A DNA stretch of 64,000 nucleotides from Octopus sinensis. Lineage: Eukaryota. The notes below the pieces were generated by a model. That model did not search any database and was not told the origin of the DNA. It saw only the letters and a list, made by a program, of their open reading frames with translations. Position numbers and translations under genes: made by a program. Where the stretch lies: positions 61,566,001 through 61,630,000 of the forward strand of contig NC_042998.1 in NCBI RefSeq assembly GCF_006345805.1, given 5' to 3'. Positions within the stretch are counted from its first letter, which is position 1. Each line of letters begins with the position of its first letter. Shown here in pieces: positions 3,884-34,494 of this stretch.

Positions 3884-3983
3884 NNNNNNNNNNNNNNNNN
3901 NNNNNNNNNNNNNNNNNNNNNNNNNNNNNNNNNNNNNNNNNNNNNNNNNNNNNNNNNNNNNNNNNNNNNNNNNNNNNNNNNNN
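3884..3983. other. Assembly gap (100 N)
   Basis: Run of N. Confidence 1.
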
Positions 3984-3984
3984 G

Positions 3985-4730
3985 GTGATGGACCTGGCCT
4001 ATGCAGATGCATTGCGCTCTGGGGCTCTAACCGGGCAGATGTCCAAGATACTCTCGAAAGAGTGCATGCTGCGGCGGCAGCTGTTGGTCTTCGGATCAAT
4101 GCTGGCAAAACTAAAGTGATGACGTCTCTGGTCGCAGCAGAGGAATGGCGGCCAATCGTTCTTGAGGGCATGGAGCTGGAGGATGTGGAGTCCTTCGTCT
4201 ACCTGGGTCCAACAGTGGTTCCAACGGACCAGGGCGCAGCCGAGGTCGAGCATCGCATAGATGTTGCCAGGTCTGCATTCGTGCGCCTCCAGCAGTGCCT
4301 GTGGGACAGAAGAGAGATCTTCTTGGTGACCAAAGGGCGAATCTAGCAGGTTGTCATTCGTACTATCCTCCTCTATGGTTGTGAAACATGGCCTATAAGG
4401 GTCGCCGATTAGCAATGGCTGGAGGTGTTCGACAATGACTGTCTCCGCTGCATTCTTCACTGCCGACGCATTGATCGGGTTCCTACAGCCGGTCTTCATC
4501 ACCTCCTGAATCTCCGGCCTCTCCCTTTGGTGCTTTTACAATGGTACTTAAGGTGGTTCAGTCATGCGGCCCGGCGTCCAGAGGATGAGCTGATTCGCGA
4601 TGTCCTCTTCCCACCTCCACTTCCCAGCTGGCGCAAATGCACAGGCGGACAGTTGAAAACCTGGGCAACGATGATAAAGGAGGACCTCTCCGAATTATCA
4701 GGTCGGCAGGTGGTCGGTCTGCGCAGATGG
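3985..4730 (+). mobile_element. RTE-clade LINE RT C-terminal fragment (decayed)
   Basis: DLAYAD, GLRINAGKTKVM, VESFVYLG, LLYGCETWP, LRWFSHAARR motifs with stops and frameshifts. Confidence 0.85.
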
Positions 4731-4965
4731 AACCTTGTAGCAGTTGACTATGGTGCTGCTTCGCCAGTCATTGAGTATGACTCCATTATGAACTACCCGG
4801 TTTACAATGTGGGTGGCGCGGCCATAGCCTACACTACCAGAGGCTTTAAGCATCTCAACAGTGATTCCGGATGGGCCAGGGGCTTTTCCTGGCTTCATAC
4901 CCTTAATTGCTTTATCTACTAGGGAGCTGTCTATTGGGATAGCTGGTCCCTCAACTGGGTCGACA
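4731..4965 (-). mobile_element. RTE LINE fragment
   Basis: VDPVEGPAIPIDSSLVDKAIKGMKPGKAPGPSGIT, homologous to 34880-35100. Confidence 0.85.
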
Positions 4966-4975
4966 TATATATACA

Positions 4976-5184
4976 TGTGAAGTATACTTGCCATCTCACT
5001 ATGGCTAACCACTAAGGGTGGGTGTTACTGTAGCCCCAGGAGAACATCGTCTCCAGCTGGCTTTAGGCACACTTTATGTGCCCTTATGGTATTTGCAAAG
5101 GGAGGTCACCCTTCCCTCATCAACCTAAGGGATATGCACGGACTGTAGTTTCTAGGTTTTCACCTGTCATCAGCGTACGACAAT
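4976..5184 (-). mobile_element. Hammerhead-bearing non-autonomous element (Penelope pLTR/retrozyme-like)
   Basis: Related to 22750-22930 and, more loosely, 1335-1452; starts with a hammerhead on the minus strand. Confidence 0.55.
5136..5178 (-). ncRNA. Type-I hammerhead ribozyme, GUC site
   Basis: Minus strand gtacg-CTGATGA-cagg(tgaaaa)ccta-GAAA-ctacaGTC-cgtgc: 5-bp stem I, stem II with one C-A mismatch, stem III ACT/AGT. Confidence 0.75.
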
Positions 5185-5447
5185 CACCGGTTTTCGATTA
5201 ATTCTTTATTACGATTATAAAATCAGTACATAGAAGAACAATACAGGACATACATACAAAAAAACAGTTAAGTGGTTCGTTTAAAATTTCCACAATATAT
5301 GGATTATTCATTATACAAAAACTGTATTTAAATTGTCCTTTGCATTGACTAATATAACATTACATTGATTGAAATCTTACCGATATATTTTAAACCCCGG
5401 CAACCTATAAGGCCCCGCAGCTTTCCTTTCCTCTTCTACATCCATAG

Positions 5448-8400
5448 TTAAACTGGGTTTCTGACACCCACCTTTTTCGCAACTTCCTTCCATCTTTTTT
5501 CATACACACCTCGTGGTAAGGTCTTCTTTTCCAGCCCCATTTTGCTCTTCAGATGATATCTGAAGTAAGTGAGCAAGTCGGGGCCTGAGACAAAGGATCC
5601 TATTGCAACTCCTTCCATTCTTGTACGCCACATGCATTCTTTTACTACTGCAACCGTGCAGTGAAAACATGCCTCACCTTCCTTCGAGAGTCCAGTTGGC
5701 GGTATCATCTTAATCATAGACTCAGCCGACAGCTGTACTCGTCCCAGATGCGATAACACGTGTTCTGCGTAACTTATCAAGTCTGACAACTGCCAACAGT
5801 GTACAAAAGCGTGCTGGACGGTTCATCGTCCAACCCGCATCTTGGACATGTCGGTGGCACTGAAATTCCGTGCCGCGATAACTTCTCCGAACAGGTAAAG
5901 CATTCCTATAACACTGCCAGGCCAGGGATCTTTGGAAATTATCCAATACCCCCGTCCTGAAAGTCTTTTTAAACAGGACGTCGTCGTTCTTTGCCTCTAC
6001 CAGCCTGCTATAAAATACCGAGGTGGTATTTCCGCAGCCGCCTGGCCCGCCTTGTCGATCAGCGTGAGTGCCTGTCGGCACTCCTTTTGCCATAAAGTCA
6101 GATTCCGTCTTTTGATGCAACCGGTTTTAAATTCACTAAGGAAGCCGGTCCTCGGGAAAAATTCCCCTGCCAGCGGACTCCACATCTTATCACCTTCCAG
6201 GTGGTGCCAGAGATGCTTCAGCCTCAACGCATGTCTGCGCATCATCAACCAAGGCATTCCTAACCCACCCTTTAAACGGTTCCTGGCAGCAAACGGAGCG
6301 CCTCACAATGGCTTTCCTTCCTCCCTTCCACAAAAGCGGAAAAGGATTCGCTCCAACTTGCTAAGCCATGAATCGGGGCAAGGGACAACGGTCAGCGGTG
6401 AGTGATTACAGATGCAATAAACATCTGTACCACCTCCGCCCTTCCTTTCAAGGACAGAAACCTTCCGGACCAGGTCCGTACTATGTCCTCCACCTTTCCC
6501 GTCACCTCACTCCAATTCCTCTCCGTTTGGGAGTCTGGCCCAAACCAAACTCCTAGCAACTTAAAGGACCATCTGTCCAGTGTCCCACGGCACTGGACGA
6601 TATCGACTTGCTCCTCCAGGTGCCGAGGCGTAAGCCAATCGACTTGTCCTTGTTAACTTTTGCTCCTGCCACCGCCTCGTATCCTCTGATAGCATCTTCT
6701 ACACAAGGTAGCTGAGCCTCATTGGACACGATGAGGGTGACGTCATCCGCATAAGCAGAAAGTCCTCCCGCCTCCGATCTCATCCGGGTTACTTCCCAGC
6801 CTCTCCAACTTTCGCAGCAATGGCTCGAGAGCCAACATGTACAAAAGTGGTGACAAGGGGCACCCTTGACGAACTGAACATTCGATCGAAAACGGTTCCG
6901 TTAGGTAACCATTTATCTGGACGGTGGACTTGATGCCGCTATACATAGCGGAGATCCACCCGCGAATTCAGGGCCCAGTCCAGCCGCTTCGAGACCGTCG
7001 CCAGGTACTTATATGGTCTACCCTATCGAACGCTTTACTTTGTCTAAATGGACCATTACCCCGCCCTTGCCGGTTAATTTACCCACCCTATCTAAGGTGT
7101 AGCGTATAAGGTGAAGTTGTCCTGGATCGACCTGCCTGGAATTGCACATGTCTGTGCTTTCCCTACAAGTTTCTCCACGACAGTCGTCAACCTTTTTGCC
7201 AACACCTTGGCCAAAATCTTTAACTCTACATTAAGTAGAGTTATGGGCCTGTAATTACTAATGTTATCCCCCTTGCTCGGGTCTTTCTGGATTAGCGTCA
7301 CCACTCCCCGGCTTACAGAACTGGGAATTCTCCCGTTCTGCTGCCAGTTCGCGTAGACGCCTGCCAGTATTCCCTCGAACAAGTCCGGCATACTTTGATA
7401 GACCATCCAACCCCGGCGACTTCTCCCCGGCGCATCCGCCAGTACCCCCCTCTATCTCCGCGGGAGTGATCGCTCCTTCACAGCACTCCACCTCACGCCC
7501 CGAGAGCCGCGGTCCGCCGGCTAGGAAGTCCTTAAAGGCCCTCCCCCTCCAGCGAACCACCACCCGAACGCGCGGGCGAAATGCTGATGAAGAACTTTTG
7601 CATCTCCTCCTGTCCATAGATCTTGTGTCCCTGTTCGTCAGTTAAAGACTTGATTGAAGCTTTATTGCCTCTCTGACTCTCCACTCGACAGGCCCATCTG
7701 GCAACGTTAATACCTTCTCGTTTCCCTGCGCGTAGCTTAGCTCTAACTCTGCAACCTTCGTGTTTAGAGTTAAGGTGACGGTACAATACCGTCCTTGCTG
7801 CCATCACTCCGGATGCAGAGCCAGATTCCATTGCCTCGTTTAGATTCTTAACTAAATCGTCCTCTATCCTAGACCTATCTAACCTTAGCTGATTGCTAAA
7901 TCTAATGGACTCTGAACGAATGGCTCTTTTGAGGGAGTGCCACCATCTATTGTTAATGATGGTGCCACATAATGCCCTCTGTACTAACACCTTAATCCGG
8001 GTACGGAAGTCTTCACAATTCAAAATAGACTTGTTCAGCTTCCAGTACCCGGGTCCCTGTCTATGACACTTATCTAATTGCACCCTACAAGTCACAAATT
8101 TGTGATCCGTGTAAGGCACAATGTGAAACTGTGCACAACTAAACGTATCCTTATCTCTTTTCCTAACGAATATCCTATCTATATACGATCTGCGTGAGCC
8201 GTCGTTGTTACTCCACATCCACTGTGGAACGCTCGGCTCATCCAGTCGATAACGGTCTACTAGATTAAAGCTCTCTAGTAGACCCTTGAGGCTAGGGTTC
8301 CCCTTCCTATTGGTTGAGCCAACACTGTCGACCCGCGCTTCGAGGACAGCGTTAAAGTCTCCTACTAAGACTACCGTTTCCGACGTCACTAAAAAGTGCT

Positions 8401-8770
8401 CCAGATTCCGAAAAAAACCCGACTGCCTACACTCATTCGGAGCGTAGACAGCTACCAACCTGAAGGACTGTTTACTTACGTGGGTCACATCCAGAACGAC
8501 CAGCCTGCCTTCTGGGTCCAGAAAGACAGTACTTACCTACAAGTCCAAGCTCTTCCTGATAAGGACTGCCACGCCTCTTCCTCTTCCTCGGCTAGGAGAA
8601 ATAAATTTCTCGAAAACATTTAGAAGAGGCGAGAACGCTTGGGCCCCGTTCATCTTGGACTCGGTTACAATAGCTACGTCCACTCCGTGTGTCGTGAGGT
8701 CGTTCAGGAGACAAATTTGTTTCCATTTCGACCCCATTCCACGCACATTCACACAACCCAGCTTTGCCAT
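5448..8770 (-). pseudogene. ORF2 (APE endonuclease + reverse transcriptase), frameshifted
   Basis: MAKLGCVNVRG, VYAPN, VGDFNA, YIDRIF, YTDHK, KSPGLDGL, NYRPITLLN, VRQGCPLSPLLY, AYADDVT across ORF-track fragments. Confidence 0.9.
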
Positions 8771-8819
8771 TGTCGGAGAGAAAGAGAAAAAAAATAAACT
8801 TACGGTTGGGACAGGAGCA

Positions 8820-10237
8820 TGACAGTTTAAATCTGCATGCTTCCCCTCTTCCTCCCTTGTGGTCGTAGCTGCAGGGCTCTTAACCGGCGTTGCCATCGGG
8901 CTCTGGGTAGGTGTGGTTGCCGGGGTTATAGTAAGTTTGCCCTCCAGTATTTCGTTAGTTACGTCTCTGATAAGGTTATTTTTTTAAATGTTCTTGGAGT
9001 GTTTTTTCCTTCCACTCGTCTTCCTTTATTTTTGCAAAACGAGTGGTCGACTTAGTGTCTTCAGACTTACTGTATAATTTCAATTTTGAAAATTTTAAAT
9101 ATTTAAACACTCTATCGTTCCTCTCGTCGAATGCTACAATCTTTTCATTTTTTTTAATCAATTTTTTCCAATCTTGTTTTATGGGGAGGGGCTTGGCGAA
9201 CTGTGTTCTAATGAATACAGTGCCGTGGGGGTAGGGCTGGGGAATTTGTTTTGTATGTATCTCTGCGGTGTTTGCTGATTTTTTCTTTTTGTTTGGGAGG
9301 GGAGTCCAGGGTATTTTCTTTTTTTCTTTTGTGTGTCACCTGTGTAAATTTCATTTGTTCATTTTTTCTTCCGTTTCGATTCCCTTCCTTGTCGCAGTCT
9401 TGGGGTCTTTTTCCGCCTTTTCTTTTTCTGTGTTTGAAGCACTTTGAGGAGGGGCTTCGCTGTTTTTCTTTTTTTTATGCAGTTCGAGCGGACGTGACCC
9501 TTTTCACCACATTTGAAACACCTAGGTCTGCGCCCCTCCACTGACACTCTCATTGTAATTCCCTCCTCATAAATACCCTATCGGGTAAGTTTTCTAGCAC
9601 ATTATTTTCTGCTTGAACGAGGAGTTCGAGCGCTTGTCCCTTCCAGTTTACCTCCTCTTTCCTTTTCATCATCAGAATTGAGACTTTCTGCTCTACGTAC
9701 GTGCAGAACCGCCGCTGCTGCTACCCACATTATATCATATCCTCTTGGAATGTCTTCCACATATAGTTTTGCAGTTCTTTTGCCCATATAGGTAGGTAGT
9801 AACATGATGTCCTCACTTTTTAAGGTCATCGATGAAATCTCTCTTGCCACATCAGCCGAGTCGAAATGTGCTTCAACGGTAGCGCTGCGGGGCACCTCGA
9901 CCGACGTAGCGAATTTTGTTCCACACCGGGGACAAGCACTTCTCTACTATTTCGTTCTTCCGTCCATTATTTTTTCTCTTTGTTACTGTAAACCTTGTAC
10001 ACGACTGTCTTGGCCTTTATTTCCTGTAATATCGCTCGCGGCGGTACCAGTTTTATTTCGTTGCCTTCCTTTTTGACCAAGTTCCGGTATTCGAACAACT
10101 GTTCTATTTTGAATTCCACTTCCGTTACGGTTCCCCGCCCACTGCGCCGAAAAAGACTGTTTTCTAACTTCGATATCCTTCTGTTCGCCTTTTCCCATCA
10201 CGGGAAAGTCGCTCCTCGACGCCAAGTCGAACTCCAT
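8820..10237 (-). pseudogene. ORF1 gag-like protein with CCHC zinc knuckle, frameshifted
   Basis: RPRCFKCGEKGHVRSNC in the 9359-9553 fragment; lies upstream of ORF2. Confidence 0.8.
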
Positions 10238-10490
10238 TTCTCAATTATGAGAACCAATTTTTTCAATAAAAAAAAAAAAAAAAATTACCCCGAAGGTAAT
10301 AACAATGTTTATACACAGAATTTTCAGCCCCGTTGGGCGAAAATTACTGTCACACAACAGACAACTGTTCAATTCACGAGCAAACACAAACAACGACGAA
10401 CAAAAAACGAACTCACTCAACAAAATAGGCAGCTAACTTCTCAATACGCAGATGAAAGAGGGGTCCCTAGACGAGTCAAAACACCGGTTT

Positions 10491-13400
10491 ACGATGAATT
10501 TATCTTTATTATGATCAAGTGATCTAACATAGAATTGGGACATTACAGGACAAAACAATTACAAAAATGCTATGCGAGTTCGAATGAAATTATAAAAATT
10601 ACAAAAATAAAATTTTATGTCACTTGAACGAAAACTTGCTTACTTGCCTTGAAACGAAACCTTGGCTTACTTTTGCCTTTATCACGAGAACTTTTAGTGC
10701 GTATGTTTCTTTTTTTATTATTAATTCTTTATTTTAAACAGTTATGTACAGTGAAGGGAATGGGAGGTACCAGTTTCAATTTTGAACCCGGCAGCCTATA
10801 AATCCCAGCAGCTGATTTCCCTTTTCCTCGTGATTAAGCCGGTTACTCCTCACCCACCTTTCTCATCACATCCTTCCAACGTTCCATATACTCTTTCTGT
10901 GGCAGGCTCCTCTTCTCCAACCCCTTCTCGCTCTCAGATGATATCCGAAGTATTTTAACAAACCGGGGCTAGAGATAAAGGACCCTTTCACTAGACGTTC
11001 CAATCTAGTCTCCATACACACTCTTTCAATACTGCCACCGTACAGTAAAAACAAGCCTTACCTTCCTTTGAGAGTCCAGTTGGCGGTATCATCTTAATCA
11101 TAGATCCAGCCGACAGCTGTACTCGTCCCAGATGCGACAACACGTGTTCCACGTAACTTATCAAGCCTGGCAGCTCCCGACATTGTACAAAAGCGTGTTG
11201 ACGGTTTCATCGTCCAACCCACATCTTGGACACGTCGGTGGCACTGACATTCCGTGCCTGGATAACTCCTCGCGAACAGGTATGCATTCCTATAGCACTG
11301 CCAGGTCAGGGATTTTTGGTAATTATCCAAATACCCCGACCTGAAAGTCTTCTTAAACAGGTTGGAGAGTTGATCCTCATCGAACCCCAGAGTCCTTCCT
11401 AGGACGTCGTCATTTTTTCCCTCTACCAGCCCTTTATAGAACACCGAGGTGGTATTCCCGCTGCCGGCCTTGCCCATCTTGTGGATCAGACAGAATGCCT
11501 GTCGGCACTCCTTCTGCCATGAAGTCAGGTTACGTCCTTTAATGAGACCGGGTGTAAATCCCTCCATAGAGGCCGGTCGCGGGAAGAATTCCTCTGCCAG
11601 CGAACTCCACACCTTATCATCCTCCAGGTAACACCAGAGGTGTCTCAGCATCAACGCATGCTTGCGCATCATTAGCCAAGGCATCCCCAGTCCACCCTTT
11701 AGCGGTTCCTGGCAACACACGGAGCGTCTCACAAGTGGCTTTCCTCCTTTCCACAAAAAGCGGAAAAGGAGTCGTTCCAACTTGTTTAACCACGAATCGG
11801 GGCAAGGCACGACGGTCAGGCGGTAGGTGACGACAGAGGCTATAAACATCTGTGCCACCTCCACCCTCCCTTTCAAGGAAAGATTCCTTCCGGACCACTT
11901 CCGTACTATGGCATCCACCTTGCTCGTTACCTCGCTCCAATTCTTCTCCGTCTGGGAGTCTGGACCAAACCAGACTCCGAGCAATTTAACGGGACCATCC
12001 GTCCAGTGTCCAACAACACTGGACGGTACCGGCTTGTTCCTCCAGGTGCCGAGGCGCAAACCGATGGACTTGTCCCTGTTAACTTTTGCCCCTGCCACCG
12101 CTTCGTATCTATAGAGAGCACCTGCTACCCGAGGTAGCTGTGTTCCGTTGGACACGATGAGGGTGACGTCATCCGCATAGGCAGAAACAGACTTACCGCA
12201 TCCGATTTCATTAGGGTTGCCTCCCAACTTCTCCAGCTTCCGCAGCAACGGCTCAAGAGCCAAAACATACAGGAGCGGGAACAAGGGCACCCTTGACGAA
12301 CTGAACGCTTGATCGAAAACGGCTCCGTTAGGTAACCGTTTATCTGGACTGGATTGATGCCGCTGTACATAGCTGAGATCCACCCGCAGAAGCCAGGGCC
12401 CAGCCCAGCCGCTTCGAGACCGCCGCCAAGTACCGATGGTCTACCCTATCAAACGCTTACTTTGGTCTAAATGGACCAATGCCCCTCCTTTGCCGTCTAA
12501 TTTCCAGACCCTATCTATAGTGTAGCGGAGAAGGTGAAGATTATCCTGGATTGACCTGCCTGGGATTGCACATGTCTGTGCCTTCCCGACAAGTTTCTCC
12601 ACGACAGCCGTCACCTTTTTGCTAACACCTTGGCCAAAATCTTAAACTCTACATTAAGTAGAGTTATGGGCCTATAATTACTAATACTGTCCCCCTTGCT
12701 CGGGTCTTTCTTCTGGACAAGCGTCACAACTCCTCCCGACTCACAGAGCTGGAATCCTCCCATTCTGTTGCCAGTTTGCATAGACGCTTGCCAGTATGTC
12801 CCCGAACAAGTCCGGCATACAACAATAAATTCATAGGGCAGACCATCCAACCCTGGCGACTTTTCCCCGGCGCACTCGGCCATAACCCCTCTTACCTCTG
12901 CGGGAGAGATCGATCCTTCACAGCACTCCGCCTCACCTGCCGAGAGCCGAGGCCCACCAGCTAGGAAGTCCTTTAAGGTCTCCCCACGCTCGAGCGGACC
13001 ACCGCCCCCAAACAGCCGTGCGAAATGCTGGTGAAGGACCTTCTGCATCTCCTCCTGTCCATAGATCTTGCGGTCCTGCTCGTCATTTAAGGACATAATA
13101 CAGGACTTTTTGCCCTTTTGACTCTCCGCACGACGGGCCCATCCGGCAACGTTAATACCTTCTCGTTTTCCTGCACGTAACTTAGCTCTGACTCTACACC
13201 CCTCGTGCTTGGCGTTGAGGTGACGGTACAATACCGCTCTCGCTGCCAACACTCCGGATGCACAGCCAGATTCCATAGCCTCGTCTAAGTTCTTAACTAA
13301 TTCGCCCTCTATTCTAGTCCTATCTAAACTTAGCTGCTTGCTAAATCAAATGGACTCCAAACGGATGGCTCTTTTGAGGGCGAGCCACCATCTATTATTA

Positions 13401-15163
13401 ATGATGGTGCCACATAATGCTTTCTGTACTAATTCCTTAATCCGGGTACGGAAAGCTTCATAAGTCAAAATAGACTTGTTCATCTTCCAGTACCCGGGAC
13501 TTTGTCTATGGCATTTATCTACCTGTACCTCACACGTCACAAGTTTGTGATCCGTATAAGGCACAACAGAGAATTGTGGACAGCTAACACTATTCCTATC
13601 TCGTTCCTTAACAAATACTCTATGTACGATCTGCGTGAGCCGTCGTTATTACTCCACGTCCACTGTGGAACGTTCGGCTCATCCAGTCGAAAACGGTCTA
13701 CTAGATAAAGCTCGCTAGTAGAGCCTTGAGGCCAGGATTCCCCTTCCTATCGCTCGAGTCTACACCATCCACCCGCGCATCGAGAATGGTGTTGAAATCC
13801 CTACCAAGACTACCGTTTTGGACGTCACTAGAAAGTGCTCCAGTTCCCGAAAAAAACCGGTCTGCCCACGTCCATTAGGGGCGTAGACAGCCACCACCTG
13901 AAGGACTGCTTACTCACGTGCGTCACATCTAGGACAACCAGCCTACCTTCTGGGTCCAGAAAGACAGTACTTACCTGTAAGTCCAAGTTCTTCCTGAAAA
14001 GAACTGCCACGCCTGCACCTCCCTCCCGGCTAGGAGAAATAAATTTCCCGTAACCATTGAGAAGTGGTGAGAACGCTTGGGGTCCTTTCATCTTGGACTC
14101 GGTAACAATAGCTACATCGATTCTATGTGAAATGAGGTCGTCCCGAAAACAAGCCTGTTTCCATTTCGACCCCATTCCACACACATTTATACAACCTAAC
14201 TTAATCATCGAAAAAGAGAAAATTATTTACTCACGGTTGCGAGAGGGAGCCTGACAGATTCCTTCTGCCTGTCTCCCCCCCCCCACTCGCCGTTGCTGCT
14301 GGGCGTTTCACCGGTGTTGCCACCGGGCTCTGGGTTGGTGTGGCTGCCGGGCTGATGTATAATTTCCCAGTTGTCACCTCCTGGGTGACACCCTTAATGA
14401 AGCCGGCTTTTACGTGGTTTTGTAAGTTTTTTTCTTTCCATCCTTCTTCGCCGACCCTTGCATATCGCCACTCCGCTTCCTTCTCGGTCGCTTTGTAGCA
14501 CCTGATCTGCGTACTTGCTTGCACAAATTTTGCTACTCTCTTGTTCCTTGTGGTGTATGCAATAATTTTTTCATTGGGTTTAAACCCTTTTACAGTTGGG
14601 GGGGGGGTTGTTAAAGTGCTGGCCTATAAATGTAGTACCGCCGGGGTGGGATTGGAGAATATTTTTAATTTGTTCGTCTGCGTTGATTTTTTTTTGTTAC
14701 GGGTGGGGAGTCAGGGGTGATGGATTTTTTCCTTTTGTTCGACACGTTCGTGAATTCCATCTCCTTGTATATTTGTTTTTGTTGTATTAATTTCCTCCTC
14801 CTTTCCTTTCTCATTTTGCATTTCGTTCTTGTCTTCCTCCTTTTTGGAGTTCGACCTGTTTTTTTTTTCCTCCTTGCTTTCGCCAGTCGTTACTTTGTTC
14901 TCCACTTTGCTGCTTTCTGCGTTCTTCACAGCGTTTTGTCGGGGGTGGGGGCGTTGCTCGTATTATTTTTCATTGTGCAAACGGAGCGAACGTGGCCCTT
15001 TTGCCCGCACTTAAAACATCTGGGCCTGCGTCCTTCCACCGAAACTCGTATGGAGTGCCCCTCCCCCACGAAGACTCTGTCTGGTAGGCTTTCCAACGTC
15101 GCATTTTCCGCCTGGATAATCATCTCAAGCTGCTGGCCTCTCCAGTGTTTTGCAATTTTCCTC
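10491..15163 (-). mobile_element. Tx1/L1-clade retrotransposon copy 2 (diverged subfamily, 5'-truncated in ORF1)
   Basis: MIKLGCINVCG (14208), SAYADDVT, NYRPITLLN, RPRCFKCGQKGHVRSVC; AATAAA at 10505-10510 (minus strand); head-to-tail with copy 1. Confidence 0.9.
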
Positions 15164-15374
15164 TAATATACACTTCAGATAATGTTAACATCCAGAGAAG
15201 CAAACATGGAATTACCCAATAGTGGAATTTACTGCATGAATGACTACTCATAGAAGTTAGAGACATTAAATACTAATTGAAGCAGATAGCCATAACCTGG
15301 AGCATAACTGAGAGCTATTACAGTATCTGCCCAGATAAATATATCCCTCTAAAGCACATTACTATATATATATA

Positions 15375-15665
15375 TATATTCTGTTGTGTCTGGGAAGAGT
15401 CATTTTCTTTTTGTGCCTTATAATGTAACACACTCACAGGTAAAATTTCCACTTTTTTTCTTATTTTTATTTTGCTCTTGAACAGGTTGCAAGATGCAAC
15501 GAAAATTTTAGGAAAATAAAAATAAGAAATAAGTGGAAATTTTACCGGTGAGTGTATTAAATTATAAGGCACAAAAAGAAAATGACTCTCCCCAGATACA
15601 ACAGAATATGCTTCAACACATGAACTCATATAAAGAATCTTGCAAACCAAATCCAAAACAGAAAT
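15375..15665. mobile_element. Fold-back (palindromic) MITE-like element
   Basis: About 95-bp arms 15375-15472 and 15514-15609; a single-arm relative lies at 20063-20220. Confidence 0.7.
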
Positions 15666-16255
15666 ATATATATATTGAGAGAGAGAGTAGTAATAATAAC
15701 AATAGTCCTTGGATGAAATTTATAAACGTTTAATGGATCGAATGCTTATAAATTCTATCCTAGGATTATTGTTATTGGTATTGTATTTATCCTACATTAT
15801 ATCGGTACAATTTCAGGCAACCCCCTAAAACTGGTTCACCAGTCAGTATCATTAGACTGAGGCAGGCATAATGGGATGAGAGCTTTATTTGCATATTCAA
15901 AATGTTTCCCATTAACAAATTTAAAAGATATATATAGAGATAGAGATTTATAATAGTATAAAATACAATTATAATTAAGGGCAGAGAAGAGACCATGCCT
16001 ATGCTGAATATAGATGCTAAATCGTGAAACCACTTAAAATTATCACTTTTATATTATACATGTGTTGAAATCATGAGAGTAAGTTCACAGAATTTCATAA
16101 AATGATTAGCCTTGGCTTGATCAATTTCTGGATTAGTCTAATAATTTTTCCTCATCAGCCAGGTATACTAAGGGAAATAAATGAGATACTTATACATACC
16201 CACAGGAAAGCAAACGCAAAGCTACGATTACATACAAATACTACAAATTTGTCCG

Positions 16256-16341
16256 CATCGAATTTCGTAGTCTATTTGGTCAGAGAAATACAGATACAGT
16301 AGCACAGAGAAGTACAGACACACTAGACTATGAAATTCGAT
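16256..16341. repeat. Short inverted repeat
   Basis: catcgaatttcgtagtcta versus tagactatgaaattcgatg. Confidence 0.7.
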
Positions 16342-16477
16342 GTCAAACCACTAAGCTACAGGGAAGTAAACATACCAACATCAGTTGCCAAGCAATGGTG
16401 GTGGGGTGGACAAACAAATACATACACACACACATACACACATATATACATACATAAATATATATATATCATTATTA

Positions 16478-17880
16478 TCATCATCATTTCGCGTCTGCTT
16501 TCCCTGCTAGCATGGGTTGGACAGCTTGACTGAGGACTGGTGAGCCAGATGGCTGCACCAGGCTCCAATCTGTTCTGGCAGATTTTCTACAGCTGGATGC
16601 CCTTCCTAATGCCAACCACTCTGAGAGTGTAGTGGGTGCTTTTATGTGCCACCAGCACAAAATCCAGTCAGGCAGTACTGGCAACACTCAAATGGTGTTT
16701 TTTATGTGCCACCTGCACACGAGTCAGTACAGCAGCACTGGCAACGACCTCGCTCGGATGTTTTGTTCATGCGCTACCAGCACAAGTGTCAGTAAGGCGA
16801 CGCTGGTAACAATCACGCGCAAATGGTGCATTTTACGTGCCACCAGCACAGAAGCCAGACAGCTACTCTGGCAGTGATCCCAATCAGATGGAGCAGTTAG
16901 AGCTCCACTGGCACAGGTGTCAGTCATCGAATTTGGTTCAATTTCGATTTCCCTTGCCCCAACAGGTCTTCGCAAGCAGAGTTTAGTTTCCAATGAAAGA
17001 AGTTTGGCATGGGTGCCAGTCGTCAAATTTGCTTCGATTTCAATTCCGATTTCACTTGCCTCAACAGGTCTTCGCAAATAGAGTTTTGTGTCCAAAGGAA
17101 AGGTATGCATAAGTGGGCTGGCTACATCCCTGGTAAAGGCCATGGGTTATGGTCTCACTTGTCTTGCCGGGTCTTCTCACGCACAGCATATTTCCAAAGG
17201 TCTCGGTCACTAGTCATTGCCTCGGTGAGACCTAATGTTCGATGGTCGTGCTTCACCACCTCATCCCAGGTTTTCCTGGGTCTACCTCTTCCACAGGTTC
17301 CCTCAACCACTAGGGTGTGGCACTTTTTCACACAGCTATTCACATCCATTCTCACCACATGACCATACCAGCGCAATCGTCTCTCTTGCACACTACAACT
17401 GATGCTTTTTAGGTCCAACTTTTCTCTCAAGGCACTTACACTCTGTTGAGTATGTACACTGACATTACACATCCATTGGAGCATACTTGCTTCATTCCTT
17501 GCGAGCTTACACATATTCTCAGCAGTCACGGCCCATGTTTCACTGCAATATAGCATTGCTTTTCGTACACATGTGTCATACAGTCTATATTTTACTCTGA
17601 GTGAGAGGCCCTATGTCACTAGCAGAGGTAAGAGCTCTCTGAACTTTGCCTAGGCTATTCTTATTCTAGCAGTTACACTTTCAGCGCACCCTACTGACTT
17701 GGTCGCCTAGGTAATGGAAGCTATCAACTATTTCTAGTTTTTCTCCCTGGAATGTGGCAGAAGTTGTTCTCTGCACATTTTCAGTGTTTATTGCTCCTGA
17801 GCATCTGCCACATACAAAGACTATCTTCCTAGTTAGCCTTCCTTTGATATTGCTGCACCTCTTATGTGTCCATAGCTTAT
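16478..17880 (-). mobile_element. RTE LINE 3' portion with long 3' UTR
   Basis: MLYCSETWAV...RRLRWYGHVVRM...GRGRPRKTW (17155-17556), followed by the repetitive 3' UTR and (GAT)n tail. Confidence 0.9.
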
Positions 17881-17929
17881 TCTGGATATATCTTATAGAG
17901 AAAATATATACACACACACACACACACAC

Positions 17930-18085
17930 AATGGGGTTCTTTCAGTTTCTGTCTACCAAATCCGCTCACAAGGCTTTGGCCAGCCCAAGGCTATAGTAGA
18001 AGACACTTTCCCAAGATGCTACACAGTGGGACTGAACCCGGAACCATGTGGTTAGGAAGCAAGCTTCTTACCATACAGCCACTCC
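17930..18085 (-). mobile_element. tRNA-derived SINE family A (head ggagtggctgtgtggtaag...ggttcagtcccactg)
   Basis: A/B box-like head; further copies near 25787, 38478, 45945, 47400, 48318, 51171, 57015, 57765, 58810. Confidence 0.8.
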
Positions 18086-18157
18086 TATATATATATGTAT
18101 GTATATATATACATGTGTGTGTGTATGTATACATATGTGTGTGTGTGTGTGTATATT

Positions 18158-18194
<37 letters not shown>

Positions 18195-19586
18195 GTGTAT
18201 TTTGTGTGCGTGTGTATATATATGAAAGAGAAAGAGAGAGAGACAGAAGAGGAAGGAGAGGAGAGAGTTTATTTGTAATATTTGAAACAATCAAATGCTG
18301 AAAAAATTAAAAGTAACGGCAGAAGCCATTACTTTTATCATCCAAATATTAGCTCTCCATTATGTCTTGGTTAATAAATCACACAGTGAAAGTTTATTAA
18401 ATCTCACCTAATTACTACCTTTGCAAAATGTTCAGGTTATTTCCTTAGTTTTACAATATGCATGTGCGTGAGAGAGAGAGGAAATGTGTGTATGTGAGTG
18501 AGTGAGTGACTGAGTGTGTGTGAGTGTGTGTGTGTGTGAGTGTATGTGTGTGTGAGTGTGTGCGTGTGTGAGTGAGTGTGTGTGTGAGAGTGTGTGTATG
18601 TGAATGACTGTGTGTGAGTGTATATGTGTGTGAGTGTGTGTTGTTGTTGTTGTTAAGCAACAAGACGGCTAAGGGTGACTATGTGATGGTCTAAGGTTTA
18701 GGGGTGGGAGACCCCAGACCTTGGCAGCAAAAAAAACTTTGGTTGTCTTGTTGTAGTCGAGGACTCTTCATTGATGCCTGACGCAACTGGGAGGTGGCCC
18801 TCGATGTCGCTGGGAATGGAGGTCCAAATTCTTGAATGGCTGAGTGTGTGTGTGTGTGAGTGTGTGAGTGAGTCTGTGCATAGGTAAGGAACAGGAGTCA
18901 AGTGAAAATGTTGCCAGTCCTCAGTATGCTTTCCATTGTGTAGTTTTGTCCCTTCCAGTATCCACCTAGTGATTTCCAAATAGACGAATTTATTCTGTTA
19001 GCTATGTCACACATCTAAAATATTCCTTTCAAATTTTGATACAAGGCTGGCAATAGTGGGTGGGGGAGGGTGCAAGTCAATTACATCAAACCCAGTGCTC
19101 AACTGGTACTTATTTTATCAACCCCCAAAGCATGAAAGACAAAGTCAGCCTTGGTGGAATTTGAACTCAGAACATAAAGTTGGACAAAATGTTACTAAGC
19201 ACAAACGATTCTGCCAGCTTGCAGTCATTTTGTCATCCAAAATATTGACTCCTTGCTCATTTAAATGAAGTGCATGGAAGGGCCAAATCATCATTTTTGT
19301 CTAGCCCCAGTCAGCCCAGATTAAGCAATCTTATGATTAAAGGCTCCTCAAAACAGCTTTCACTGCTGGAAAAAATCTTTGTCGTAAAGTAGAGATTATG
19401 GCAAACTTGGAAAATTCACAGCAGACTTCAAAAATGGGAATCATTCCTCATAAAAAATGTTTTCACACATTTGACAACTTAGAATAGAATACTTAATTTC
19501 AAATAGTGACTTCGACTCTGACACACCCTAGTGTATCAATAATATGTCAGGAATATTGATAAGTTTATTATAAGGAAAAAACATCA

Positions 19587-19811
19587 TATTTGGTTGGTGC
19601 ATAATTATTGCGGCTTTTTTTCAATGAATTTTATTCAACAAAGACAATTACAACATTTAACAAAATCATCTTTAAATCATTATTCTGAAGCATATTCACC
19701 ATCTACTTCAATTTCTGCTTGGTGTTTTGTTTAAATTGGCGTTTTGTTTAAATTTTTTGTTGAATAAAATTTATCGAGAAAAAGCCGTAATAATTATGTA
19801 CCAACCTAATA
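19587..19811. mobile_element. Mariner-derived MITE
   Basis: TIRs ggttggtgcataattattgcggcttttt / aaaaagccgtaataattatgtaccaacc with TA flanks; internal transposase C-terminus IEVDGEYASE on the minus strand. Confidence 0.85.
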
Positions 19812-19984
19812 TAATTAAGTATTGTGACTCTCTGCATGTGTGGTTGTGATTTCTTTTTCTAGTCAAAAACTGCAGAGTTGAGTATAAAAACATTAATAGA
19901 AATAATACTTTGAAATGGAAGAGACATTATCCCCATATATATTGGCGCTACAATTATCATGATGTAGGCTTGAACATTCTGAAA

Positions 19985-20394
19985 CAGTGGCTCTCGACTG
20001 GGGTCTATATCACTCTAGTGGGTCTATATAAGATTTTGTTGTTAAAGTTTATCAACCATAAATTTTGTTGTGTCAGGGGAGAGTCATTTTCTTTTTGTGC
20101 CTTATAATTTAATACACTCACCTGTAAAATGTCCACTTATTTCTTATTTTTATTTTTCTAAAATTTTCGTTGTGTCGAACTCACATAAAGAATCTTGCAA
20201 ACCAAATCCAAAAACGAAATACCACAAATTTGTTATACTTCTACAATTCACAAAATATTTTGACAATTTTTATACAATTCCTAATAATATTTAATGGCAA
20301 AAATACAATAAGTTTTTTTTTTTTAAAGATCGAATGGCTACGAGTAAAACAAGAATAAAATGGGTTCATAGATGAAAAATGGTTGAGAACTACT
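19985..20394. mobile_element. hAT(Charlie)-like MITE with nested insertion at about 20063-20220
   Basis: Ends cagtggctctcgac / gttgagaactact; uninterrupted relative at about 58250-58490. Confidence 0.6.
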
Positions 20395-21332
20395 TCTTTG
20401 TAACATCAACTGGAGAAGACTAAGTGGAGATAACTCCCAAGACATATGAGAAATTGGAAAACGTCGTTAAAGGGAGACAACAAGTAAAATGGAGTGACAA
20501 GACACGGAAAATTTATAGGGAACATGGAACGTTTGAAATCCTTGAAATGAAATTTATATTTTTACAAACTAAAGATTTTGAGCTCAATACACTATCAAGT
20601 TTCCACTATTACACCCCCGAGTATCTGTGGTACATTCAGAGGCCATATTAGTTTGAAGTGACCAGAGGTACTTTCACAAACGATGTGTTTGCGTGAGATG
20701 GTGGTAGGGAGAATGATGCACTGGAAGGGGTTAGTTTTGAAGAAGATTTCTTTAGTGTGTACAGTGTGGCGTTGGATATTGACCTTTAGATTGGCCAATC
20801 ATTGTCCATACATTTTCCCAGACATTTAGTCAGCCCTTGTTTCATATGTTCTTAGTAATTTAAAGCTTTCTTTTCATAAGTGTTGAGTTACCCTGGTGGT
20901 TGAAAAATATTAGGAATGTGTATGATACAGGATGCTTGGACACCAAGGAAATATGTCCTGTGAAAAGAAAGGATAGACAAAGGATTAAGGGGACAAGTGA
21001 AGATGCAGTCAATATGAGAATAATACAGGTTATGGAACCTTCATGTTTGAAAATGGAAGAGAGGAGGATTTTGCAAAGTTAATCAAGATCTTTTTGGTAA
21101 GGGACCAAAAGAATTAGCTGCCATTTGGGATAATGTTGCAGGGGTTATGGTGCTGGTACATTGTTACGTTCTGAGTTCAAATTCTGCTGAGGTTGACTCT
21201 CATCCTTTTCGGATCAATAAAATAAGTTCTTGTTGAACACTGGGGTCGATGTAATCAGATCATCCCCACCTTCCCCAAGCTGCCCTTGTGGAAAAAATTT
21301 GAAATAATTGTTATTATCATTATTATTATAAA

Positions 21333-21546
21333 AGTGGTGAACTGGCAGAATCATTAGCATGCCAGGAAAAATGCATAGCAGTTTTTAACCCGTCTTTATG
21401 TTCTGAGTTCAAATTCCACTGCGGTTGACTTAGCCTTTCATCTTTTTGAGGTTGATGAAATAAGTACCAGTTACACACTTGGGTCAATGTAATCGATTAG
21501 TCTGCTTCCCCAAAACTTCAGGCTCTGTACATATAGTAGAAAGGAT
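21333..21546 (+). mobile_element. tRNA-derived SINE family B (ggcggcgagctggcagaa...gcctttcatcctttcggggtcgataaa)
   Basis: Copies at 21165, 26704, 27244, 44110(-), 46563, 56153; the central segment resembles a MetaSINE/Nin-type domain (from memory). Confidence 0.75.
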
Positions 21547-21562
21547 TACTATTATCATTATG

Positions 21563-22075
21563 TGAGAGAGCAGCACTTGCCATTAAAGTGACACTAGATA
21601 CAAATATATGAAACCCAATATACCCATCCTGACTACCCATCTGATAAGGGTACACAAGGTACATGAGTCACAACCATATGTGCATGACATGGTGATCTTA
21701 TATCAAGAAAAACAGTGCATGAGTAGCCCATCCCACTCAAAAGGCCTCTGAATAAAGTTTGTTTAAGAATGATGAACAAAACATCCGTGTTTCCAGAGGT
21801 GAATTATCCAAACCCCAAAGAATCCCTCTCAACACATGGCTATGATGCTCCCCCACTACTTCTGCTCGGGAACAGAGATGCACATATCATCTGCCACTAA
21901 GGGACATGCTCAACTGATTAAGCTCAAACAACCGACAAATAAATCTGTGGTATTGAGCAGAATATTTACTGCAGCCCATCTTTTATACCAGGACAAAACA
22001 ACGTACATGATGACACTTCCAATCAGTTAAGATGAGAATCCATGAGAGCCACTGCATGGTACTGCATCAGGGCAT
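21563..22075. mobile_element. About 500-bp interspersed repeat, second copy at 24445-24980
   Basis: Collinear similarity (gagagagcag...ccactaagggacatg...ggtactgcatcagg), both copies adjacent to (TTA)n. Confidence 0.8.
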
Positions 22076-22129
22076 ATATTATTCTTTTTCACAGGTTTTG
22101 TTGGAGCTCCTGGAGTCTTGCAAGCATAG

Positions 22130-22700
22130 CGGCCTTATTACCTGAAGCCTACGGTACCATGCTATTTGTTCTTATCAGCTATCTAATACTTTCCTGATAT
22201 TTCTGGCTATGCCAGGGAGGCAAACCTCTTGTAACAGTTCTACTGGGCACTCTATTCCAATTTCTTTTATATTATCCTTGATGCCTTCAGATACAGTTCA
22301 CAAGGTTCCAACAATAATTGGCAGTATTTTTACCTTCTCCATTCTCCATAGCCGGGCTATTTTGAACTTAAGGGGGTTGTATTTATCTTTCTTGACTATT
22401 CGTGGGTCGAAGGGGCATGCAACATCATCTATATGGTATATGTGGTGCACTTTGTCCACCACAACTAGGTCCAGTCTCTTATGCGCTAGCACCTGATCTG
22501 TTTGGATTGGGAAGTCTCAGAGGATTTTGCTAGTCTCAGTGTTCATACCACATCTTGCCTCTCTCTAACCCCTACTTTTTGCACTGCTTTGCTACATAGT
22601 CACCACAACTTGTAGCAGTTTTAGATATGGGCAATGGTTTCATCCACTCTATTGCAGATGCACCACAGCAGAGACACTTGCTCATTCATTAGGTTGACCC
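22130..22700 (-). mobile_element. Dong/R4-type LINE 3' fragment (RLE domain)
   Basis: HKRLDLVVVDK...IDDVACPFD...KDKY..LK..IARLW...ILPIIVGTLG. Confidence 0.75.
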
Positions 22701-22749
22701 TCCAGTTCATGGCTAGAGCTTATGATTATTATTATTATAATTATTATTG

Positions 22750-23015
22750 TGAAGTATATTTTCCACTTAAATGTGGCTAATCCTTAAGGGTGGATGCTAC
22801 TGTTGCTTGTAGCCCCAGGAAGACACCTCCAGCTGGCTATTGACACACTTTCTGTGCCCTATCAGTATTTACAAAGGGAAGCCATCCTTCCCATCTCCAA
22901 CCTGACGTGATACATATGGACCCAAGTTTCTGGAGGAGGTGTCTTCTGGGGGCTACAAGCAACAGTAGCATCTACCCTTAAGGGTTAGCCACATTCAAGT
23001 GGCAAATATACTTCA
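22750..23015. mobile_element. Fold-back copy of the hammerhead-bearing element
   Basis: Arms 22750-22832 and 22931-23015; the inversion starts right after ggacccaagtttc (minus-strand GAAAC..GTC, the 3' half of a hammerhead). Confidence 0.7.
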
Positions 23016-23067
23016 TGATATTGTGCAGCTACTGTTTATATCTCGCTCAGAGATTTATTGTTGATTA

Positions 23068-23113
<46 letters not shown>

Positions 23114-23131
23114 CATTATTATTATTTGTGC

Positions 23132-23852
23132 ATACATGACAGTGTAAGCATCCTGAGAGAAAAGTTGGACATAAAAAGCATCAGATGTGGTGTGCCAGAG
23201 AGATGATTGTGCTGGTCACGTATTGCATATAGATGAGGACAGCTGGGTGAAAAAGTTTCACACCCAAGCAGTAGAGGGAACTGGTGGAACAGGTAAACCC
23301 AGGAAGTCCTGGGATAAGATGCTTCCCATTGCATCACACCTTTGAACGCTGGGCCTCACCAAGGTGATGGTAAGTGACTGAGACCTTTGGAGATATACTG
23401 TATATAAGAAAACCCAGCAAGTCAAGTGAGACCGTAACTGTGGCCTATGCCAGTGCAGCATAACCAGCCCATTTAAGAGTACCCTTCAATCATTGGGCAA
23501 TAAACTGCACTTGTGAAGACCTGTTGTGGCCAGTGAAGTCATTATTATGGCTGATGACAGTACCACCTGATTGGCACTTGGCACCTGTGCCAGTGGTATG
23601 TAAAAAGCACTATTCAAGCATGGTCGATGCTAGTACCACCTGACTGGCCCTCATGCTAGTGGCATGTAAAAATCACCCACTACAGTCTCGGAGTGGTTGG
23701 CATTAGGAAGGGCATCCAGCTGTAGAAACATTGCCAGATCAGATTGGTGCCTGGTGCAGCCTTCTGGCTCACCAGCCCTCTATCAAACAGTCCAACCCAT
23801 GCCAGTATGGAAAGAGGATGTTAAACAATGACGATGATGACGATGACCATGA
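23132..23852 (+). mobile_element. RTE LINE 3' end and UTR
   Basis: SVSILREKLDIKSIRCGV; tail ending in GAT repeats. Confidence 0.8.
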
Positions 23853-24009
23853 TTATTTACTTTTAATCTGCATGTTTGTTACGATCACTTGCCGAGGCAC
23901 ACCCAGCATCTTAAGGTGAGTGAAGGATAAGAGATGTTACAGTATGACTGAAATCTTCGGGAGGGGAAGTAGCAGGGGCAGTAGTGAAATATCTCCTTGT
24001 AATACAACA

Positions 24010-31929: not shown

Positions 31930-34125
31930 CACCAGCATCAGCCACGACTATAATTTCACTTGACTTGACAGGCCTTCTCAAGCACAGCATATTACCAAAG
32001 GTCTTGTTCACCAATCATTGCCTCCATCAGGGTCCAAAGTTTGAACCACCTTGTTCCATGTTTTCTTGGATCTACCTCTACCATGGGTTCCCTCCACAGT
32101 TAGAAAGCAGTACTTCTTTACACATCTGTCCTCGGTCATGCACATCACATGACCATACCAGTGCAGTTGTCTCTCTTGCACACCACATCAGATACCTCTT
32201 ATGCCCAACTGTTCTTTCAAGATGCTTACACTCTGTCATACATGCACACTGACATTGCACATCCGGCAAAGCGTACTGGCCTCATTTCTTTCAAGCCTAC
32301 GCATGTTGTCGGCTGTCACTGTCCATGTTTCACTGCTGTGTAGCATGGCTGTTTGTACACAGGCATCATACAATCTGCCTTTCACTCTGGGGAGAGGCCC
32401 TTTGTTGCTAGCAGAGGTAGGAGCTCTCTGAACTTTGCCCACCCTATTCTTATTCTCACAGCTACACTCTCAGAGCATCCACCTCCATTACTAACTCAGT
32501 CACCTAAATAACGGAAGCTATCTATTACCTTTAGCTTGCTCCACTGGCGGTTGATGGGGTCTATTTTCTGTACATTTTCAGTGTTTATTGTACCTGTGCA
32601 CCTTCTTCACACAAAAGCCATTTTCCCAGTTAACCTTCCTCTGATATTGCTGCACCTCTTATGTGTCCATAGCTTGTACCAGGTACATCTTATGGAGTGT
32701 CTAACAACACCTTTCCTACAGATAGAGCAGGACTATCTGTCTGAAGTGATTTGTGATTTATTTGCATTCCTACTTACTAAGACTTTGGTCTTTGCTAGAT
32801 TAACACTAAGGCCCTTTAATTCTAAACCTTGCCTCCATGTCTCAAATTTATAGTTCTGTTAGTGATTCAGCTATAAGAACAAGGTCATCAACATAGAGGT
32901 GCTCCCAGGGGCATCCTGTCTTAAATTCCTCTTTTATTGCCTGGAGGATTATGATGAACAACGGGGGCCTGAGAACTGATCCTTGGTGAACCCCTACATC
33001 TACCCTGAATTCCTCGCTATACTCGTTGCCAACCTTCACTTTACTGACAGCATCCCTGTACATTACTTGAACAGCTCTCACCAGCCACTTGTCTACCCCT
33101 AGTTTTTGCATTGACCACCAGATAAGGGAGTGGGAGACTCTGTCAAAAGCTTTATCCATGTCGACAAAAGCCAGGTACTGGGGTTCATTTTTGGCTAGAA
33201 ATTTCACCTACATTTGCATAACTAGGAATATAGGATCAGTCATGCTCCTGCCTGACACAAATCTGAACTGCATCTCATCTCCCTAATTAACTGAGCTGTG
33301 AATCTTTCTGTAACTTTCATCACCTGGTCCAGCAGTTTGATGCCTCTGTAATTATTCCTGTCTAAGGAGTCACCTTTGACTTTATAGCGGTTGACTGTGA
33401 TGCTGCTACACCAATCTTTAGGTATGTCTCCCTCGTGGACAACCTGATTAACTATATGAGTGATTCAGTTATATCTACTCTGCCAGATATTTTAAGCATC
33501 TCAGCAGAGATTCCTAATGGGTCAGGGGCTTTCACTGTCTTCATGTCCTTAATTGCTTTATCTACTAAGCTACTGTCTATTTGGATATCTGGTCCCTCTG
33601 TTGGGTCTACATTTGGTAGACTCTCCTTCTCCCATTCATTCTCCACTTTCAGTAGTCTTTCATAATGGTATTTCCAAGCTGCTTTCTTTGCAGAATCATT
33701 AAATGCAAGTACCCCCATCATCCATTTGGACACATTTCTCTCCTATGACATCACAATTTTGTCTCACACATTATCTTACAATCCAAAACACTTCAAGTCT
33801 TTGGTCTTCACATCACTGAACATAGGCAAACTTCTTTTCTGCATCTCCCTTGGCTAGATATACCTATCTCATAGTTTTCCTTTAGGCTATCTGATACAGT
33901 TCCCTGCTACCCCCGCTTTTCCAATCCTTTCAGGCCTGTTTCTCCTTAGGTCTGGATGGTACTTTGCACTCAGCAAGCTGTCACACAGGAATTCCCAGTT
34001 GCCCTCTATGTTACAAGCCTGTAGTTGCTCAAAGGGTCCTTAAACTTCCAAATCCTTGTTTTCCAGATTGGTCTGCTTCTTGGCATCCTTGTAGCCTGAA
34101 GTCTAAAGTCAGTAATGACTAGTCA
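31930..34125 (-). mobile_element. RTE LINE (decayed)
   Basis: FVDMDKAFDRV, GVHQGSVL, LYVDDLVL, LHSSETW. Confidence 0.9.
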
Positions 34126-34137
34126 TAAATACATACA

Positions 34138-34190
<53 letters not shown>

Positions 34191-34367
34191 GTTTATATAT
34201 TTGTTTTGCAAGATTTTTGATGTGAAATCGTGTGTTGAAACAGATATTGTTGTATTTAGGAATGGTCATTTTGCCAGTTTAGTCAATAAAAACACATGCA
34301 CTTTATATTTGGTGCTACTTTGCTTCAGCATTATTCATTTTTTACATTAATCTTAATCTTATTTCAG

Positions 34368-34407
34368 CCAGAGTTCTTTCGTCACACTCCTGTGACCTCA
34401 TCATTGG
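34368..34407 (-). ncRNA. Degenerate hammerhead motif
   Basis: cca-aTGATGA-g-gtcac(aggagt)gtgac-GAAA-gaacTC-tgg; C3 mutated to A. Confidence 0.45.
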
Positions 34408-34494
34408 TCCTTTGCTTTCTTCTTTCTTATTTGTGTGTCTCTCCTTACTAACAGTCAATAATCTATATATTATGGTGCAAAATCCCCTCTCGAC

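Follow-up and report, generated by a model that had tools for sequence, protein, structure and literature searches.

Three sister families of Tx1-type LINEs in Octopus sinensis (A, B and D) insert at a fixed position of hammerhead repeats. This position lies 14-17 nt past a likely snRNA-type start, and the LINEs likely use the promoter captured there; based on sequence comparison, we assign this reading a probability of about 0.68. The fixed site, the 14-17-bp duplications, the stacks of elements, the U1/U2-like element upstream (at 55-59 nt) and rare insertions at the equivalent position of U1 and U2 genes were all observed.

Two stacked LINEs beside a hammerhead repeat

The window, a stretch of 64,000 nt from contig NC_042998.1, contains two LINEs arranged head to tail on the minus strand with 81% identity over 3.6 kb (Table 1), in agreement with a first-pass annotation made from the letters alone. 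AATAAA is located near both 3' ends (5210-5205 in copy 1, 10510-10505 in copy 2) and poly(A) is absent, as that annotation had described, while both ORFs of copy 1 are broken. The motif CACCGGTTT was found as reported at 5185 and 10482, which are its sole two matches in 4001-24000. A direct repeat at the shared site is also present, its length being 14 bp with one mismatch (5185-5198 and 10482-10495) instead of the 9 bp described. Copy 2 had been considered a diverged older copy; it instead belongs to family B, which differs from the family of copy 1.

Table 1. Features of the stacked LINEs and the adjoining repeat, in window coordinates.
Feature	Position	Strand	Evidence
Downstream part of the ~355-nt hammerhead repeat RZ (RZ1 subfamily)	4975..5198	-	92% identity to empty copy L042
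Type I hammerhead motif, one-pair helix III	5136..5178	-	Sequence; covariation among the 87 motifs
3' copy of the 14-bp target-site duplication (RZ +1 to +14)	5185..5198	-	
Copy 1, full-length family A Tx1-type LINE	5199..10481	-	91-97% to other family A copies lengthwise; domains
Copy 1 ORF2 remnant: AP endonuclease, reverse transcriptase, zf-RVT	5451..8800	-	tblastn with L080 and L071 ORFs; Pfam
Copy 1 ORF1 remnant	8997..10240	-	CCHC knuckle found in L092 homolog
Duplicated target between both LINEs: 14 bp and 3 upstream bases typical of family B	10482..10498	-	
Copy 2, family B LINE lacking the first ~818 nt	10499..15164	-	96% to full-length L133; family flanks

The part of RZ in the window runs from a presumed +1 at 5198 to a TA run. 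Its hammerhead possesses CUGAUGA, GAAA and GUC, with a predicted cut at 5141/5140 (+58). The intact core attributed to it was thus confirmed in its letters, whereas the loop-III palindrome is lost and the 10.1/11.1 pair is C-A; the single-strand fold of this copy is no better than that of shuffles (z -0.16). The hammerhead does not head the repeat, as had been thought, since empty copies extend upstream through the target. The upstream RZ half with its promoter-like element is absent at the 5' side of copy 2 in the window.

The repeat RZ and its hammerhead

RZ has a period of 355 nt, a short tandem tail and a 5' part that is often inverted, and its copies are mostly dispersed and near-monomeric (1-1.3 units). 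A total of 87 motifs were parsed with a parser that demanded the core letters, and among them the 3-8 pair covaries (C-G 49, U-A 19, U-G 18, C-A 1). The core, three helices and covariation of a type I hammerhead are therefore all found. The core begins 25 nt behind +1 in 80/87 motifs, and GUU is found in 14. A palindromic loop III, with six different palindromes in all, is present in 75/87, as is known from metazoan and Penelope hammerheads that act as dimers (PMC4209133). Position 10.1/11.1, where a conserved G10.1-C11.1 pair is the usual expectation, is C-A in 47 of the 87 (window included) and G-C in 31. An Rfam scan detected no hammerhead, window copy included, and the strict pattern found none in 80 metagenome loci of distant relatives.

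A tandem unit of 150-450 nt with a type I hammerhead, as in non-LTR retrozymes, is present, and RZ would fit a non-LTR retrozyme or a Penelope-derived mini-element (PMC7229834; bioRxiv 10.64898/2026.07.22.740005; for the tail, PMC11167929). According to the available text of PMC7229834, PMC4209133 and bioRxiv 10.64898/2026.07.22.740005, non-LTR retrozymes and the Penelope pLTR share with RZ a unit of ~355 nt, a type I hammerhead, a palindromic loop III and a partial-tandem tail. RZ differs from them in its mostly dispersed copies of 1-1.3 units and inverted 5' parts, and no linked Penelope ORF or autonomous partner was identified at the loci examined. In Penelope, the pLTR flanks an ORF encoding RT and GIY-YIG. 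Penelope-like ORF fragments were seen by eye near four RZ loci, out of register with RZ, and the two that were scanned gave no Pfam match.

Targeting by family A

Family A was sampled at 48 places, comprising the best 40 matches to the 3' end and eight places from an exact pattern, which itself found 42 ends. The 3' end adjoins RZ at the same base in 42 of the 48, while four adjoin the motif followed by another LINE head (stacked) and two adjoin neither. The upstream RZ half was recovered at the 5' side in 34/38 long loci (29 by BLAST, five by eye); two of the remaining loci are stacked behind family B and two are uninformative. The 5' end is complete in 34/39 copies, and four 5'-truncated copies (L084, L096, L098 and L027) still sit at the target. 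The duplicated 14-mer varies with the local RZ subfamily and is usually the same on both sides (e.g., L063, L075, L083 and L084). Mean identity is 96% for the LINE ends versus 81% for the flanks, with a weak correlation between LINE and flank similarity (Mantel r 0.24, p 0.014). Exact empty sites number 270 and 114 for two RZ variants in 2.72 Gb, so that a random exact-base match is estimated at ~1e-7 per insertion. The family A copies are independent targeted insertions.

ACCGGTG belongs to the empty hammerhead repeat: among the top 30 RZ matches, 29 lack a 3' end of either family A or family B in the surrounding 1.5 kb. It was therefore rejected as the LINE's own terminus, given that the motif occurs in empty RZ and that the duplications vary with local RZ. 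The first-pass annotation had proposed that the LINE parasitises a Penelope/retrozyme-type repeat, and named random 3' flanks in other copies and an ACCGGTG that is simply a terminus as observations that would speak against it. Since both fail, with the flanks nonrandom and the motif part of the empty repeat, this parasitism is supported.

Two atypical loci were also recorded. L135 is a recombinant LINE inside RZ, of which the 5' part is family A and the 3' end is family B. In L094, the 3' junction lies at an internal ATCG of the 3' UTR and AATAAA is lost, through either homology-guided priming or later deletion.

Families B and D

The family B set consists of 30 of 40 matches, and the family D set of 34 of 40 places. 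Family B has a duplication of 17 bp, and its ends adjoin RZ in 21/30 cases, with seven stacked, one in U2 and one elsewhere. A triple stack is present, and stacks of families A and B were seen in both orders (B-A and A-B). The RZ-adjacent copies of its subfamilies B1 and B2 favour different RZ variants (8/8 and 13/13), and some B2 copies show no difference from their nearest neighbour across 1.2 kb. Flank identity in B2 is 0.966 versus 0.97 for the LINE; because the flanks are as alike as the LINEs, and in view of the weak Mantel correlation in family A, some co-mobilisation is possible.

Family B is a same-aged sister of family A, the median within-family distance being 2.4% versus 2.6% for the families of copies 1 and 2. 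With both about equally old, the first inserter cannot be told, and the proposed landing of copy 1 at the junction of copy 2 is not readable as an order of insertion. Stacking order from ages was rejected as a criterion, the differences being too small or inconsistent.

Family D was first found beside a U2 gene. A third repeat precedes 32/34 of its heads, and the hammerhead of this repeat follows 3/3 informative family D 3' ends; in L263 the repeat forms a two-unit tandem. Further LINE ends or heads of the group, from at least one more family, are stacked at a similar site in L130 and L138. L111, initially read as a LINE head, is U2.

snRNA-type promoter element and insertions in U1 and U2

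A TCAGT-type motif is located at -55 to -60 in 25/25 U1 and 27/29 U2 loci, and in 0/18 U6 loci, many of which come from one tandem array or are pseudogenes. A matrix trained only on 18 distinct U1/U2 sites of the host genome, with distances measured from where the duplicated 14-mer begins, ranked -55 to -58 first in 5/5 RZ units (shuffle p 0.0005-0.0025), tests that are not independent because the units share ancestry. The RZ scores of 7.6-16.2 are mostly lower than those of the training sites (12.6-18.9). A U1/U2-like proximal element thus lies at about -57 in RZ, and from its position it may be inferred to be a PSE. Among sites with intact proximal sequence, it is present in 40/42 filled versus 19/32 empty RZ sites (Fisher p 2e-4), the empty set being biased towards one subfamily and truncated inverted arms; the promoter-like element is missing at two filled RZ sites.

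Insertions in snRNA genes are rare despite the shared promoter type, which counts against the proposed reading: 1/30 U2 loci (at +14), 0/25 U1 loci and one further U1 found by pattern. The family B copy L129 lies in U2 (Rfam 183.6 bits) with a U2-derived duplication, and its 5' end bears an additional RZ 14-mer. Two family D copies carry heads of U1 nt 1-17 away from U1 promoters, and a truncated family D copy sits between a U1 promoter and U1. All three foreign heads, of 14-17 nt, begin exactly at the presumed +1, as would be expected of RNA made from the donor's upstream promoter; for these three copies, template jumps are an alternative source. The first-pass annotation missed two things: that the site lies downstream of a U1/U2-type promoter element at a constant spacing, and that U1 and U2 occasionally carry insertions at the equivalent position.

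The B and D insertions at U2/U1 5' ends and the D copies with U1 heads are found at L129 (G000:C3:19724800-19732300), L266 and L153-L258, and a family D copy on C6502 is flanked on both sides by U2 genes in convergent orientation. The RZ promoter was also considered as a Pol III promoter; this was rejected, since the regions upstream of U6 are without the motif and score low, and since LINE heads begin with T runs. Four assembled contig sets compared with L064 cover LINE and RZ; their type is uncertain, and they are uninformative on starts, ends and expression.

Proposed mechanism and alternative explanations

In the proposed mechanism, the AP endonuclease would make two nicks, one at -3 to 0 on the bottom strand and one at +14 (+17 in U1) on the top strand. 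The LINE RNA would start at the +1 of the repeat and hence carry the first 14 nt of the target, and annealing of this 14-nt head at the 5' junction would explain the many full-length copies. Read-through beyond AATAAA would add target sequence to the 3' end, which could prime reverse transcription without poly(A). The duplication regenerates the target site, which gives rise to head-to-tail stacks like that of the window. The hammerhead would serve the host repeat, whether retrozyme or Penelope-derived mini-element, and for the LINE it is probably an unneeded passenger.

Alternatively, the endonuclease may simply read a short motif resembling the 5' ends of U1 and U2, the promoter being incidental and the LINE having an internal one. 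Off-target sites (L273, L121, D1 and U2) indeed begin with the same bases as the usual target, the RZ-adjacent B1 and B2 copies keep to different RZ variants, and determination by the endonuclease is the rule stated for Tx1 elements (PMC4494074). However, the 14-mers of family A differ at up to half their positions while their distance from the element is constant, the element 58 nt away is more frequent at filled sites, and the foreign heads start exactly at +1 in 3/3 cases, which makes this explanation unlikely. It is far less probable still that the machinery moving RZ amplified a small number of RZ-LINE-RZ composites as whole units. Such hitchhiking would account for the equal flank and LINE identities of B2 and for the weak Mantel correlation of family A, but family A is found in four or more RZ subfamilies and its duplications match them, its flanks are much more diverged than its LINEs, truncated copies carry their own duplications, mixed stacks occur in both orders, and 114 empty sites of the B2 target exist. 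As a general explanation for family A hitchhiking is refuted, while for B2 it is a possibility.

The first-pass annotation also raised the idea that the hammerhead trims read-through RNA at +58, giving a defined, target-homologous 3' end needed for priming; this is compatible with promoter capture. The lack of poly(A) at every junction examined, the constant 25-nt spacing of the core behind +1 (80/87 motifs), the presence of hammerhead repeats as targets of all three families and the junction of L094 at an internal ATCG, as base-paired priming would produce, are in its favour. On the other hand, the cleavage range of AATAAA is usually 10-30 nt. Every family keeps AATAAA, so that this range falls within or just behind the 14-mer, and the U1/U2 insertions are without a hammerhead. 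C-A at 10.1/11.1 in RZ1 (47/87) and GUU in 14 motifs also speak against trimming, and monomers of hammerheads with a short helix III are inefficient at cleavage (PMC4209133). That the ribozyme defines the 3' end is possible, though the less likely option, because the cut lies 58 nt into the flank, past the AATAAA cleavage range, and because the short-helix-III type needs dimers.

Beyond promoter capture, a broader scenario may be put forward tentatively, although the odds are somewhat against it: a Tx1 lineage descended from snRNA-gene targeters might find its site mainly through the snRNA promoter complex and have shifted to ribozyme retroelements on account of their U1/U2-type promoters, creating a three-layer parasitism. 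If so, animal retrozymes would generally run on snRNA promoters and serve site-specific LINEs as mobile landing pads and promoters.

Comparison with known elements

Pfam domains PF03372, PF00078 and PF13966 in ORF2 and a CCHC knuckle in ORF1 give the LINEs the two-ORF organisation of Tx1. The best solved structural relative is L1 ORF2p, among named ORF2 relatives the nearest comes from Argonauta hians (54%), and the top Atlas cluster is auto-named TX1 149 kDa (0.97). In a quick RT tree of 89 rows, with two short rows dropped and no named Tx1 references among the rows, families A, B and D group in a single clade (100), and its sister group consists of Keno-type metagenome elements inserted in U2 (SH-aLRT 90). 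The Tx1 label given initially is supported as a probable assignment.

Tx1 elements are regarded as target-specific when more than 20% of flanks are one repeat (PMC4494074); the shares here are 42/48 (A), 21/30 (B) and 32/34 (D). Known Tx1 targets include U2, microsatellites, piggyBac, Mariner, Harbinger and LTR elements (PMC4494074, PMC4640811, PMC8869645). Tx1L of Xenopus (in Tx1D) and the crocodilian Tx1-Mar, Tx1-9_AMi and Tx1-8_Crp likewise prefer another transposon and stack in tandem, but their targets are piggyBac, Mariner, Harbinger and LTR elements, and the available text of PMC4494074 mentions neither a ribozyme repeat nor an snRNA-type promoter. No literature report of a Tx1 element targeting a retrozyme or Penelope repeat was found, although Repbase, subscription papers or supplements may hold one. 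An Octopus repeat annotation lists L1-Tx1 families and leaves hammerheads unmentioned in its available text (PMC13282606). The targeting is real; site-specific Tx1 elements are already known, and the hammerhead-repeat target and the promoter-capture model appear to be new.

Keno belongs to the Tx1 clade and is specific for U2 snRNA (PMC4494074, PMC4640811). Like the families described here, it has an AP endonuclease and an RT, with a target inside a transcription unit driven by an snRNA promoter, and the Keno-type L282 has a comparable duplication of ~15 bp. However, L282 inserts after about U2 nt 53, whereas the families here insert at +14 to +17, mainly in hammerhead repeats, and RT identity is ~36% or less. 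Insertion at the conserved internal U2 site, as in Keno, is not seen, the single occupied locus of 30 being hit at +14.

R2 and similar co-transcribed site-specific elements also depend on transcription of the target (PMC4494074). R2 differs in its restriction-like endonuclease and its 28S target. Ty3, an LTR element tethered by TFIIIB, inserts at Pol III start sites, likewise at a fixed distance from the start. According to PMC2220036, newt satellite 2 (Coats et al. 1994) combines a hammerhead repeat and a Pol II promoter of the snRNA type. It provides a precedent, from another phylum, for the combination proposed for RZ. To our knowledge, no site-specific LINE is known in newt satellite 2.

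Hammerhead repeats would represent a new target class for site-specific LINEs, and a single rule, insertion just behind an snRNA-type start, would link the snRNA- and transposon-targeting Tx1 elements. The transcription of animal retrozymes might be explained, in a testable way, by an snRNA-type promoter located at each unit's end, so far reported for newt satellite 2. With their different targets, the three sister families, one of which is very young, form a natural set for studying specificity change in AP-endonuclease LINEs.

Among the distant metagenome relatives scanned, 4/20 lie beside U2 and 2/20 beside 5S; these are L277, L279, L282, L285, L288 and L291, with L282 at a Keno-type site.

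Other features of the window

A small inverted-repeat element (15395-15610) lies near the missing 5' end of copy 2 and the missing upstream RZ half. A second, decayed RZ-like remnant (22748-23066; 77-78% identity) has an inverted part and no intact hammerhead. Positions 3884-4970 consist of a 100-N gap and, after it, pieces of other LINE-like RT elements lying on either strand; RZ has inserted into these pieces. Finally, a long inverted duplication (32056-36917; ~79% identity) contains RT-encoding fragments.
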